Origin: a virus
Reading direction: 5' to 3' (one strand)
Virus record (IMG/VR): IMGVR_UViG_3300044712_000083
Coordinates: 1 to 64,000 of that record
DNA: 64,000 bases
Of the stretch, positions 276 through 12,419 are shown piece by piece; the first letter of the stretch is position 1; the number at the start of each line of letters is the position of its first letter. Below the pieces are notes generated by a model. That model was not told the origin of the DNA, searched no databases, and was given only the letters and a program-made list of their open reading frames with translations. A program made the position numbers and the translations under genes.

Positions 276-310
276 TAACAGAGTGTCATTCGTGATGCTC
301 TGTTATTTAA
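276..310 (+). terminator. hairpin / intrinsic terminator
   Basis: TAACAGAGTGTCA-TTCG-TGATGCTCTGTTA stem-loop directly after a stop codon. Confidence 0.6.
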
Positions 311-324
311 ACCTTTTATATATT

Positions 325-645
325 ATGAATGCAAAAGAAGAGTTTATTTACCACACAGCTGGTAATGTAGTTAAATGTGCCAGTATTACAATTGGTGATA
401 ATTGGTGGAAAGAAGATGAAGAAACAATAATATATAATCTTCCTGTTGGTTATACACAAGAAGAATATGATGCGTTTCTTCAGTCTATAGATACAGAATA
501 TGATTCTGGCTATGGTGGACAAGAGTTATATGGTACTATATGGTATACAAATGGTACATGGTCTGATAGAGGAGAATATGATGGCTCAGAATGGTGGGAA
601 TATCATATATGTCCAAGTATTCCAGAGAGTTTAATTAAATGCTAA
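325..645 (+). CDS. conserved phage hypothetical protein (YDSGYGGQELYGTIW type)
   Basis: ORF 283..645; ATG at 325 is the likelier start; acidic, aromatic-rich. Confidence 0.75.
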   Translation: MNAKEEFIYHTAGNVVKCASITIGDNWWKEDEETIIYNLPVGYTQEEYDAFLQSIDTEYDSGYGGQELYGTIWYTNGTWSDRGEYDGSEWWEYHICPSIPESLIKC

Positions 646-659
646 TAATATAGCATTAT

Positions 660-754
660 AGTCAGGTAATGTAATGGTAACATAACGAAATGGGAGCACC
701 GAAAGGCAGTACCAATCGCTTGCGTTTATACAGGTTCGATTCCTGTCCTGACTA
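660..754 (+). ncRNA. tRNA-like RNA with non-canonical, expanded anticodon arm
   Basis: Acceptor AGTCAGG/CCTGACT, T8A9, D-arm ATGT-AATGGTA-ACAT and T-arm ACAGG-TTCGATT-CCTGT are all perfect; 46 nt lie between the D and T arms with no 5-bp/7-nt anticodon hairpin. Confidence 0.8.
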
Positions 755-789
755 CTAAAATTATTTATTTACAATCAAATCATACACAC

Positions 790-1017
790 ATGTCAAATTA
801 CATTACACTATATTCTTCCTTATTAGATAAGAGAGGATATGCAAGAAAGTCAGATTGGTTAGAATTTGTATTCAATGACCAATGCACACACATTGAATTT
901 ATTGTTCAAGGTGTTAATTACCGTTTTTCAGATGTCAGCCATTTGCATTTAGAAGAAAGTCTAATGCATGATGAGATATTTGATGATAATTGTTTGTTAG
1001 TCCCTGTAAACATTTAA
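790..1017 (+). CDS. hypothetical protein
   Basis: 75-aa ORF with CATACACAC leader. Confidence 0.65.
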   Translation: MSNYITLYSSLLDKRGYARKSDWLEFVFNDQCTHIEFIVQGVNYRFSDVSHLHLEESLMHDEIFDDNCLLVPVNI

Positions 1018-1212: not shown

Positions 1213-1250
1213 AAAAAGGGCTAGTCTTATAGATTAGTCCTTTTTTTATT
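1213..1250 (+). terminator. intrinsic terminator
   Basis: AAAAAGGGCTAGTCT-TAT-AGATTAGTCCTTTTTTT. Confidence 0.8.
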
Positions 1251-7041: not shown

Positions 7042-7800
7042 ATGAAAAAGTCAACATTAGTTACAGGATTTACAAAAGAGAATTTCAAGCAGTGGTTAGG
7101 TAAGAAACCAGTTAGTTTCTTAGCAGGTATCAATAGACCAATTGATCCAGCACAAGTCACCAAATTAGCACAGTCTATAGATGCTATTGGTGTACAGCGT
7201 ACATTAGTTGTAGCAGAATTTGCATTCATTACAGGTAAAAAAGAAATGTATGTAATTGATGGACAACACTTGTACCATGCATTGATGCGTAATGGTTTAG
7301 ATATCCCATATGTAACGGTAGAAATCAAGGACAAGGCTGATCTTGTAGAAAAGATTGCATTGTTGAATGCATCATCAAAGAGCTGGTGTACACAGGATTA
7401 TATCACTGCATGGAGCTGTTTGAAAACAGATTATGTAAAGCTGAATGAGTACTTGAATCGTTATGATATTGAGAAAGCATTAACAGCTAGCATTCTAATG
7501 AATAATGGAACAGATGGTAGTAATACAATCAGAACCATTAAAAAAGGTGAGTTCCAAATCATTAATGAAGAAGGTAATGTTAAGATTCTTGATTATATAA
7601 CTGATTTATTAAAAGTTATTCCTCGTCAGAATCGTGTACAAAACAAATATGTTTGTCGTGAGTTCTTGAGTTTTGTTAGAAGCTGCCCAGATTACAATCA
7701 TGAGCGTTTCATGAATAACATCAAGAAAGTTAAAGATGATTTTAAGTTTGCTACACAGCAAGAGGGACGTTTATCAGATTTCTTTTATAAACTAAAATAA
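7042..7800 (+). CDS. ParB/DndB-like N-terminal domain protein
   Basis: NR.ID...V.KLA.SI...VIDGQHL; start MKKS at 7042. Confidence 0.7.
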   Translation: MKKSTLVTGFTKENFKQWLGKKPVSFLAGINRPIDPAQVTKLAQSIDAIGVQRTLVVAEFAFITGKKEMYVIDGQHLYHALMRNGLDIPYVTVEIKDKADLVEKIALLNASSKSWCTQDYITAWSCLKTDYVKLNEYLNRYDIEKALTASILMNNGTDGSNTIRTIKKGEFQIINEEGNVKILDYITDLLKVIPRQNRVQNKYVCREFLSFVRSCPDYNHERFMNNIKKVKDDFKFATQQEGRLSDFFYKLK

Positions 7801-7808
7801 TTACAATT

Positions 7809-8027
7809 ATGTCTATTAAAACACGCGTAGGAAGAGTGGTTGAAGTTATCAACCAAAACAAAAAGAAAGGTGCAGCTGATACATATGAAGCTGTATTGTT
7901 AAAGAATGATGCAGGGGTGCATGAATTCTTATTCACAAAGGTTGAGTTAGATGTGGCATATTCTCGTGCTCGTAAGAACATTGAGGATACGTTAGAGCAA
8001 AGCTTAATTTCCAAAATTCTAGATTAA
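7809..8027 (+). CDS. hypothetical protein
   Basis: ORF in operon. Confidence 0.7.
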   Translation: MSIKTRVGRVVEVINQNKKKGAADTYEAVLLKNDAGVHEFLFTKVELDVAYSRARKNIEDTLEQSLISKILD

Positions 8028-10495: not shown

Positions 10496-12419
10496 AACGA
10501 TGCAGGAGTTCTTCCTGATGAATGTCTGCGAACCTGAAACAAAGGAATGTCACGAGTTTATGGTTAGCAAATGGCATAATAATCTTGATGCAATGGTTAA
10601 GTTCATTGATGATCACAAAGATTTCTATTTTGTTGGCTACAATAACTTACGATTTGACTCACAAGTTGTAGAATGGATTCTTCGTAACTACGATAACTGG
10701 CACCACAAGGACAATCTAGAGATTGCAGCTATGATTGCCCAGAAAGCACAAGATGTTATCCATGATGCAAACTTTGAGGTGTTTCCTGAATACAGAGAAC
10801 AAGATTTGTCATTCAAACAAATAGATCTTTTCAAGGTGAATCACTACGATAATAAGAATCGTATGGTTTCCTTGAAGAGACTAGAGTTTGAGATGGATCT
10901 TGAGAACATCGAAGAGATGCCTATTCACCATAGTAAGGTGAATATGACTCAGGAAGAAATCGAGATCACTCGTGACTATTGCAAGAATGACGTGTTTGCT
11001 ACTTATGAATTCTATAAGATAACTACAGGTCAATGTGATCATCCATTATACAAAGGAAACGATCAGCTACAATTGAGACAGGATATACAAGAAGAGTTTG
11101 GTATTCCTTGTCTTAACTATTCTGATAGTAAGATTGGTGATGAGATGATTAAGAAATACTATTGCCAGGAGAAGAAAATACAATACACAGACTTACCCAA
11201 GAAAGGTTTCTTCAGAAAAGAAATCAAGGTGAAGAACTGTATTGCTCCATATGTTACATTTAAAACTACACAGCTACAGACATTCCTAAAGAAAATGAAA
11301 GGAACTACGCTTGGGCTGCAAGATGATTTTAAAGAGCATATAGATTTCTATGGTAATACTTACTCGTTTATGAAAGGTGGTTTGCACACAGAAAACAAAC
11401 CAGAAATATTTGAAGCAAATGAAGAATATGAGATTATTGACTGGGATGTTTCTAGTTACTATCCTGCTATCATTATCAATAATGGTAAGTATCCCGCTCA
11501 TCTTGGTAAGGAGTTTCTTGAAGGTTATAAACAGATGTTTAATAAGCGTTTGGAACTCAAACCGCAAGCGAAGAAGGATAGAAAGATAGCTGGTATTGTA
11601 GGAGCACTGAAGTTAGCTGTAAACTCTGTCTATGGTAAAAGTTCTGATATGCAGAGCTGGATCTATGACAGACAACTAACTATGTTCACTACTATCACTG
11701 GTGAATTGTCTTTGATGATGCTTATAGAAGCATATGAGTTAGCTGGCATACATGCTATATCTGCTAATACAGATGGTGTAACAATTAGAATTAAGAAAAC
11801 CGACATACCAAAAATGCATGAGATTAATGCTTGGTGGTCACAACTAACAAAATATGAACTTGAACGAACCGACTACGCAAAAATTATCTTCTCAACTGTC
11901 AATGACTATTTGGCGATTAAAACTGATGGAGGAATCAAGAAGAAAGGAGATTTTCTTACTGATTTCGAGTTGCATAAGAATAAGTCTGCTCGTATCGTGC
12001 CTCTTGCTCTTGAACAATTCTTCATCAACGGTACGAGTGTCGCTGATACTATTAACAGTCATAGACATGTGTATGATTTTTGTATGCGTCAAAGAGCTAA
12101 TCGAGATTTCCATTTTGAGGGAAAATCTGAAAAGGGAACGACAATCTATAACAAACTTATTAGGTTTTACGTTTCTAGAACTGGAGAAAAGCTTCTAAAA
12201 GTAAAAAATGCAGATTCTACATCTGGTGCACCACCAGTCTCACAAGTGGAGGCAGGTGAATGGGTAATGACCGTATGTAATAAACTATCTAAAGATCATC
12301 CTATGGATAATATCAATAGAGAGTATTATATAGAACGTGCACAGAAGATGGTGGATAAGATTCTGCTCGGAGGTAGAAAGCCTATCTTCGTAGATCCAAA
12401 TCAATTATCATTATTTTAA
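10470..12419 (+). CDS. polB: family B DNA polymerase with 3'-5' exonuclease
   Basis: Exo motifs YDIET, YNNLRFD, YCKND; polymerase motifs DVSSYYP, KLAVNSVYGK, SANTDG. Confidence 0.93.
   Translation: MQVLIYDIETMQEFFLMNVCEPETKECHEFMVSKWHNNLDAMVKFIDDHKDFYFVGYNNLRFDSQVVEWILRNYDNWHHKDNLEIAAMIAQKAQDVIHDANFEVFPEYREQDLSFKQIDLFKVNHYDNKNRMVSLKRLEFEMDLENIEEMPIHHSKVNMTQEEIEITRDYCKNDVFATYEFYKITTGQCDHPLYKGNDQLQLRQDIQEEFGIPCLNYSDSKIGDEMIKKYYCQEKKIQYTDLPKKGFFRKEIKVKNCIAPYVTFKTTQLQTFLKKMKGTTLGLQDDFKEHIDFYGNTYSFMKGGLHTENKPEIFEANEEYEIIDWDVSSYYPAIIINNGKYPAHLGKEFLEGYKQMFNKRLELKPQAKKDRKIAGIVGALKLAVNSVYGKSSDMQSWIYDRQLTMFTTITGELSLMMLIEAYELAGIHAISANTDGVTIRIKKTDIPKMHEINAWWSQLTKYELERTDYAKIIFSTVNDYLAIKTDGGIKKKGDFLTDFELHKNKSARIVPLALEQFFINGTSVADTINSHRHVYDFCMRQRANRDFHFEGKSEKGTTIYNKLIRFYVSRTGEKLLKVKNADSTSGAPPVSQVEAGEWVMTVCNKLSKDHPMDNINREYYIERAQKMVDKILLGGRKPIFVDPNQLSLF

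Follow-up and report, generated by a model that had tools for sequence, protein, structure and literature searches.

A tRNA-shaped element with a replaced anticodon arm in an uncultured phage, and related elements in environmental viruses

Genomic setting and anatomy of the element

The window analysed here comprises the first 64 kb of a 114,191-bp IMG/VR virus record that carries terminal repeats and is rated complete. The genome encodes a DnaB-like helicase, a DNA polymerase and a ribonucleotide reductase, and its DNA recurs mainly in freshwater metagenomes; phage and host are both uncultured. Across the whole 114-kb genome a single tRNA-like gene was tallied, a 95-nt element on the + strand at 660-754. 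The element and its surroundings are laid out as follows.

283..645, +: upstream gene, T5.067 homologue (phrog_3972, PHROG E = 4.6e-26); likely true start at 322
640..655, +: small hairpin TGCTA/TAGCA spanning the upstream stop codon, 4 nt 5' of the element (sequence reading)
660..666, +: 5' strand of the acceptor stem, AGTCAGG, preceded by T at -1; near-invariant in the family and compensated where it varies
667..683, +: U8 (T667) and A9 (A668), then the D arm ATGT/AATGGTA/ACAT, which is not of the leucine-tRNA type
684..729, +: middle of 46 nt, standing where a tRNA has its anticodon arm and variable loop; weak in structure and confined to this phage lineage
730..746, +: T arm ACAGG/TTCGATT/CCTGT, whose stem covaries across the family
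747..754, +: 3' strand of the acceptor stem, CCTGACT (747-753), and discriminator A754
755..763, +: conserved trailer CTAAAATTA, the end of a repeated 3' module
790..1017, +: small downstream gene of 75 aa, of no known family
1213..1245, +: intrinsic terminator

The element begins 14 nt past the upstream stop codon and ends 35 nt ahead of the next gene. Between positions 1 and 1400 of the + strand, the only terminator-like sites are the one at 1213-1245 and a weak 5-bp match at 31-44, far upstream of the element. Because the single strong terminator of this interval lies at 1213-1245, the element is probably carried within a multi-gene transcript.

The upstream protein is 50% identical to the T5.067 homologue of phage DT57C; its family numbers more than 2,100 homologues, and a Pfam domain is present in none of them. 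This family has a strongly conserved core (approximately Y-G-G-Q...R-G-E-Y-D-G-S-E-W-W), and the AlphaFold model of the window's protein (pLDDT 84.7) found no match in a PDB search at E of at most 0.001. A T5.067-like gene followed by a tRNA or tRNA-like RNA is seen in T5, DT57C and two viral loci described below (L158 and L159). As a fixed partner of such RNAs the upstream gene was ruled out, since six IMG/VR contigs with homologues 50-56% identical have neither a tRNA nor a tRNA-shaped frame with a replaced interior (hereafter, shell) within 1.5 kb.

Searches of the whole genome for an integrase (tyrosine integrases included), a tRNA_int_endo splicing endonuclease, RtcB and Ro60 (TROVE) found none of them, and a gene for a CCA-adding enzyme is likewise absent. 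Within the window, no antisense match to the middle (684-729) was found, and, in a check on the putative Bacteroidota host, the full -33/-7 promoter pattern occurs once, below chance expectation. The motif ACAGCAA has 20 sites in the whole window against 12.3 expected, a count reached by none of 100 shuffles; none of the copies lies within 4 kb of the element.

The likeness of the element to a tRNA exceeds chance, with an Rfam RF00005 score of 48.8 bits (gathering score 29; E = 2e-7 over the 64-kb window). All 16 stem pairs of the acceptor, D and T arms are intact, bearing out the first-pass annotation, which had described the three arms as perfect. The acceptor strands 660-666 and 747-753 pair in seven of seven Watson-Crick positions, ATGT (669-672) forms four pairs with ACAT (680-683) around the D loop AATGGTA with its GG, and ACAGG (730-734) forms five pairs with CCTGT (742-746) around the T loop TTCGATT. 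The bases that build the elbow are all present (U8, A14, A15 opposite U at 729 in the manner of A15 with U48, GG and TTCGA), as is an A at position 26. A754 is followed by CTAAA, so that CCA is not encoded and the 3' end reads ACTA rather than ACCA, as had also been noted.

Between the D and T arms lie the 46 nt reported initially (684-729), of which the RF00005 alignment skips 35 nt where 11 are expected. Direct reading found no 5-bp stem closing a 7-nt loop in any register of this interval. ARAGORN, which had been expected to make no proper tRNA call, called nothing on the element, and the same tool calls intron-bearing tRNAs in other, giant-virus loci. The absence of an anticodon loop, already part of the first description, is thus solid, and without a 5-bp/7-nt anticodon hairpin the element would be unable to read codons.

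A canonical anticodon exposed by a removable intron had been named in advance as the finding that would speak against a non-decoding RNA. The version that can be drawn is a tRNA-Pro with anticodon GGG after removal of a 24-nt insert (696-719) at position 37/38: a stem of 685-689 with 721-725 leaves the loop A-U-GGG-A-U, with U33 and A37 in place and a variable loop of 4 nt, and DT57C does have a tRNA-Pro after the homologous upstream gene. However, the stem contains an A.G mismatch, no motif of 3-nt bulge, 4-bp helix and 3-nt bulge can be drawn, ARAGORN rejects the element as it stands, and the phage has neither splicing endonuclease nor RtcB. The tmRNA genes of its relatives point to bacterial hosts, in which we know of no 24-nt tRNA intron. 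Nor does the element have specific similarity to the tRNA-Pro of T5 or DT57C, and the middles of related elements (roughly 15-120 nt) hold no consistent anticodon. We regard a decoding tRNA-Pro as very improbable.

The middle had been drawn as a long GAAA-capped hairpin. Its complementary blocks are there (AACG 684-687 with CGTT 723-726, TGG 691-693 with CCA 712-714, and CC-GAAA-GG at 699-706), but the fold lacks thermodynamic support. The minimum-energy structure of 684-729 (-9.3 kcal/mol, z = -0.69) is equalled in stability by 49 of 200 shuffles and pairs differently from the drawing, which is the minimum-energy fold only when 691-714 is taken alone (-3.4 kcal/mol, z = 0.04). The hairpin is therefore drawable and just a possibility.

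No copy of the middle was found in IMG/VR with several sequence probes. One 16-mer from it (GGGAGCACCGAAAGGC) matched nothing but a coding region, which was set aside as a chance hit. The D arm (AUGUAAUGGUAACAU) differs from the leucine-tRNA-type arm of most related elements (GGCGGAAUUGGUAGACGC), and no other IMG/VR contig combines the window's 5' strand with the window's D arm. An identical D arm (ATGTAATGGTAACAT) occurs in an otherwise unrelated 93-nt, intron-bearing tRNA-Gly(UCC) on contigs of giant-virus bins (L002:5117-5209, L004:3667-3759 and L006:9512-9604).

A family of tRNA-shaped frames and selection on their fold

A search with the acceptor strands, and then with the T arm and 3' strand, uncovered many viral contigs that share AGTCAGGT at the 5' side and ACAGGTTCGAWTCCTGTCCTGACTA-C at the 3' side around quite different interiors. 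The family frame can be written as 5' AGUCAGGU ... ACAGGUUCGAWUCCUGUCCUGACUA-C. A covariance model (R1) built on the acceptor and T pairs only, with the window sequence in its seed, matched 179 copies of 67-172 nt in 100 viral loci that had themselves been picked by RNA pattern. The window element scores 75.5 bits on R1, partly by construction as a seed member, and its share in the frame is also visible directly. Copies often stand in arrays between small genes, with at least 12 in ~5 kb at one locus (L036).

For an unbiased set, loci were fetched via a neighbouring AAA+ protein, independently of any RNA pattern; at E of at most 0.001 they hold 14 R1 copies, each on the same strand as the genes. 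In their acceptor and T stems, 167 of 167 alignment cells are standard pairs, and 10 of the 12 pairs have changed on both sides, a result equalled by none of 500 shuffles; sliding the partner by one column lowers pairing to about 50%. The D stems vary as well (GCG/CGC, GTG/CAC, GCTT/AAGC, GCGT/ACGC, GTTT/AAAC and GCTC/GAGC, with ATGT/ACAT in the window) while GG is retained in the loop, and an alignment fitted to no structure has double changes in three of four D pairs. The alignment of a second model, R2, was left out of the D-stem counts because it placed long middles inside the D loop.

This covariation is a pattern that a role in DNA only would not require, and it indicates that selection on the RNA fold maintains the frame. 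A covariance-model search for arms covarying around a variable middle was the check proposed beforehand; random decay of the stems, the outcome named as speaking against selection, is not what the homologues display, since they keep their stems. The near-invariance of the frame sequence itself could also stem from DNA-level recombination or gene conversion, and not from RNA function alone.

Several further traits recur across the family. Of 30 short members, 29 have A as discriminator, and T at -1 is conserved in the rows aligned with their flanks. About a third of the family has non-leucine-type D arms with compensated stems, so that the leucine type is a majority trait and not a strict one. 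A phage leucine tRNA is the probable ancestor of the frame, whose A1-U72 start, D arm and A73 recur in a tRNA-Leu(UAA) of a related locus (L138).

The family was rare outside viral contigs: among 185,579 species genomes it occurred on only five metagenome-bin contigs and in no isolate genome, from which we conclude that the frame is not a host tRNA. This distribution, together with the lack of a tyrosine integrase and the presence of both tRNA halves, excludes a phage attachment site. GenBank phages gave only generic T-arm matches and none to the family, and full-text literature searches found no description of it (PMC10690425 mentions only generic tRNA-like candidates). Standard annotation handles these elements poorly, as ARAGORN misses them and Rfam would mislabel them as tRNA.

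Some shells and arrays have additional features. A 138-nt shell (L133:8740-8877) with a long middle has what appears to be a further hairpin inside the D loop, so that the anticodon position is not the only site of insertion. In the L036 array, a promoter-like module with a -33/-7 pattern of Bacteroidota type (TTTGG..ATTAAAATATTA.ACATATCTTTGTATT) recurs at ~7320-7359, 7944-7985 and 10730-10769, ahead of small genes and one shell. Between two shells of another locus (L127:3436-3515) there are two ACAGCAA motifs, one of them in the loop of a GGAGA/TCTCC stem.

Exchange of the interior and variation at the locus

Three related loci were compared with the window. L158 has an upstream protein 90% identical to that of the window and a 19-nt spacer with one base changed (T659 to C, the last base before the element). 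The element that follows there is 102 nt long; its D arm is of the leucine type, its middle is unrelated to that of the window element, and similarity to the window resumes at the T arm. L159, with an upstream protein 74% identical, keeps the spacer identical though the interior again differs, and carries a 155-nt element there and a 130-nt element further on. L129 has a different upstream region and interior, and is ~88% identical to the window from the T arm through the downstream gene, so that the orthologue of the 75-aa gene stands behind a different shell; homology restarts exactly at the T arm.

These breakpoints indicate that the interior, here the D arm and the 46-nt middle, is swapped as a cassette between phages at an orthologous locus, even where the flanking gene is 90% identical. 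What the window adds to the family is a single-copy shell in which the D arm has been exchanged too, and a three-way replacement at one orthologous locus.

Breakpoints at the frame would also suit a role solely in cis, in which RNase P/Z punctuation separates mRNAs, the shell perhaps serves as a DNA recombination linker as well, and the middle is filler without function in trans. Several other observations would fit such a role: the short distances to both neighbouring genes with no terminator in between, the energetically unstructured and unique middle of the window element, and the range of 67-172 nt, which implies that the middle is not constrained in length. Filler should drift, however, and some middles are held more tightly than frames across distant phages. 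The middles of L036:8263 and L133:9502 are about 93% identical while compensated changes set their frames apart in the acceptor, D and T stems, and short middles recur among L043, L036, L008 and L045 and again among L040, L031 and L029. Middles can, on this comparison, be more strongly conserved than frames and are not always junk. A recombination linker, moreover, would need neither D-stem covariation nor G18/G19, U8 and A14. We consider a purely cis-acting shell unlikely, if worth keeping in mind.

The presence of the element is not uniform among close relatives. L128 has only a marginal R1 match (21.6 bits, E = 0.026, in a search with E up to 0.1), L137 has none at E up to 0.1, and the shell at L131:3890-3975 carries a surplus C in the 3' strand of its acceptor (CCTCGACT) and is probably a decaying copy. 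On this pattern, the element is dispensable. The same facts, together with its status as sole copy in its genome and a middle that is unique and weakly folded, would be expected of a decaying pseudo-tRNA, an idle hitchhiking remnant of a shell or tRNA. Against such decay stand the 16 of 16 intact stem pairs, the retained tertiary-contact bases and the absence of any listed difference inside the element in three metagenomes whose flanks vary; we judge it improbable.

Those three freshwater metagenomes were compared through strain variants of the locus. The element itself has 0 to 2 differences, whereas the ~350 nt before it carry 8-10 and the ~135 nt after it carry 6. One contig (X2) is an exact match over 660-765; another (X3) has 11 differences over 300-759, the 10 listed all lying at or before 659; and a third (X5) has 16 over 314-889, the 14 listed all lying outside 660-757. 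The low variation is consistent with purifying selection and not decisive.

Summed contig depth over 708-775 exceeds that of neighbouring bins by up to about 50x in X3 and about 2-4x in X2 and X5, and loose contig ends at 726-730 and 757-765 bound the repeated 3' module, which is common to many other contigs. In one of two RNA libraries with sequence from this stretch (X23; assembled contigs, with DNA carry-over possible), one contig covers 557-707 and a second, subject to the same possibility of carry-over, links an L131-type middle to window-like downstream sequence.

Comparison with known RNAs and candidate roles

The closest published analogues are RNA1 and RNA2 of phage T5 and rnaC and rnaD of phage T4. 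T5 RNA1 and RNA2 (NC_005859, 30501-30644 and 32959-33083) are annotated as 'tRNA-like stable RNA with unknown functions'. Visual inspection indicates that they share with the window element tRNA-like ends and an elbow, with an insert of ~70 nt replacing the anticodon arm, and they too lie in an early region among small genes. The D arm of RNA1 is of the leucine type; RNA2 matches the element in T-arm sequence (CAGGTTCGAATCCTGT) and stands just downstream of T5.067, the gene whose homologue precedes the element. In contrast, their acceptor stems differ from that of the element, both are missed by the Rfam tRNA model at E of at most 0.01, and no cassette-like exchange has been reported for them. 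On R1, part of RNA2 scores 27.1 bits, within the range of ordinary T5 tRNAs, and RNA1 scores 10.7 bits. We therefore treat the T5 RNAs as analogues and not as demonstrated homologues.

T4 rnaC and rnaD (species 1 and 2; NC_000866, 70908-71171) are small stable RNAs within a phage tRNA cluster. In our reading, rnaC combines a canonical T arm with an acceptor stem that is only partly paired (five of seven pairs), and it scores 19.5 bits on R1. Unlike the element, rnaC and rnaD have imperfect acceptor pairing, are missed by the Rfam tRNA model and do not share the frame sequence. A decoding RNA with resemblance to the shell family is the class II tRNA-Leu(UAA) at L138:13640-13726, which combines the A1-U72 start and A73 with the D arm GGTGGAACTGGTAGACAC and a similar acceptor, ACTTAGG. 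This tRNA possesses a variable arm and an anticodon stem of 5 bp with a loop of 7 nt, all of which the window element lacks, along with the leucine-type D arm.

Taken together, we think it rather probable that 660-754 belongs, as a single copy, to a large, uncatalogued phage family of non-decoding tRNA-shaped RNAs, with a frame selected for its fold, an exchanged interior and processing of its ends. The frame would consist of the acceptor stem, the T arm, an elbow-forming D arm, A73 and a C at position 74. The initial proposal of selection for a non-decoding tRNA mimic with intact elbow and acceptor gains support from the recurrent frame, the compensatory changes in acceptor, T and D stems and the replaced middles. 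The roles suggested along with it (a nuclease decoy, an RNase P/Z processing signal or a stable scaffold) are putative.

Such an RNA might be made in four steps. It would be transcribed within an early multi-gene RNA ending at 1213-1245. Host RNase P may then cleave between U659 and A660, and RNase Z or an equivalent after A754 or C755, possibly followed by CCA addition, which would depend on host enzymes, the phage having none of its own for this step. We infer this excision from the frame's retention of the acceptor, the T arm, the elbow and the conserved T at -1, which is the leader base preferred by RNase P. Cleavage would release a stable L-shaped RNA of ~95 nt and sever the upstream mRNA from the downstream mRNA. 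In the last step the frame may serve as a handle for processing and stability, and the middle as the working part acting on a partner.

This division of labour has a laboratory counterpart. In the engineered 'tRNA scaffold' attributed to Ponchon and Dardel in 2007, foreign RNA reportedly takes the place of the anticodon arm, and the frame is said to give end processing and protection from nucleases. The scaffold is a laboratory design, and natural shells may work in the same mode by analogy. A function for the middle of the window's copy is likewise putative and argued from analogy, as this middle is no more stable than shuffles and is absent elsewhere in IMG/VR.

A more speculative extension, to which we give limited credence, is that shells form a natural 'display library', in which a nuclease-resistant frame presents exchangeable RNA modules that bind or mislead host factors as an RNA-based counter-defence. 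Targets might be, for example, tRNA-targeting defence nucleases, synthetases or modification enzymes, and an arms race would then have left its trace in the exchange of interiors between near-identical phages.

The stable tRNA-like RNAs of T4 and T5, described decades ago and still lacking an assigned function, here have a counterpart in a very large modular family of environmental phages. If the middles are working modules, the shells would represent a new class of phage small RNA and a natural precedent for tRNA-scaffolded RNA expression. If they are not functional, the shells would still mark a definite place in phage early regions where genes are shuffled and transcripts processed.

Other tRNA mimics without a decoding anticodon arm include the tRNA-like domain of tmRNA and the YrlA/Y RNAs. 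YrlA has a permuted topology and a closed acceptor. A Y RNA or YrlA acting with Ro60 was rejected for this locus, as the 114-kb genome has no TROVE match and the element has an open acceptor. The element also differs from tmRNA in having neither a G3.U70 pair nor a tag reading frame. Phage tmRNA genes do adjoin shell arrays, at L133:9619-10057 (Rfam 61.5 bits) and L136:10123-10594 (48.2 bits; cut-off 47), and the reading frame of the former ends ...AVAA-stop.
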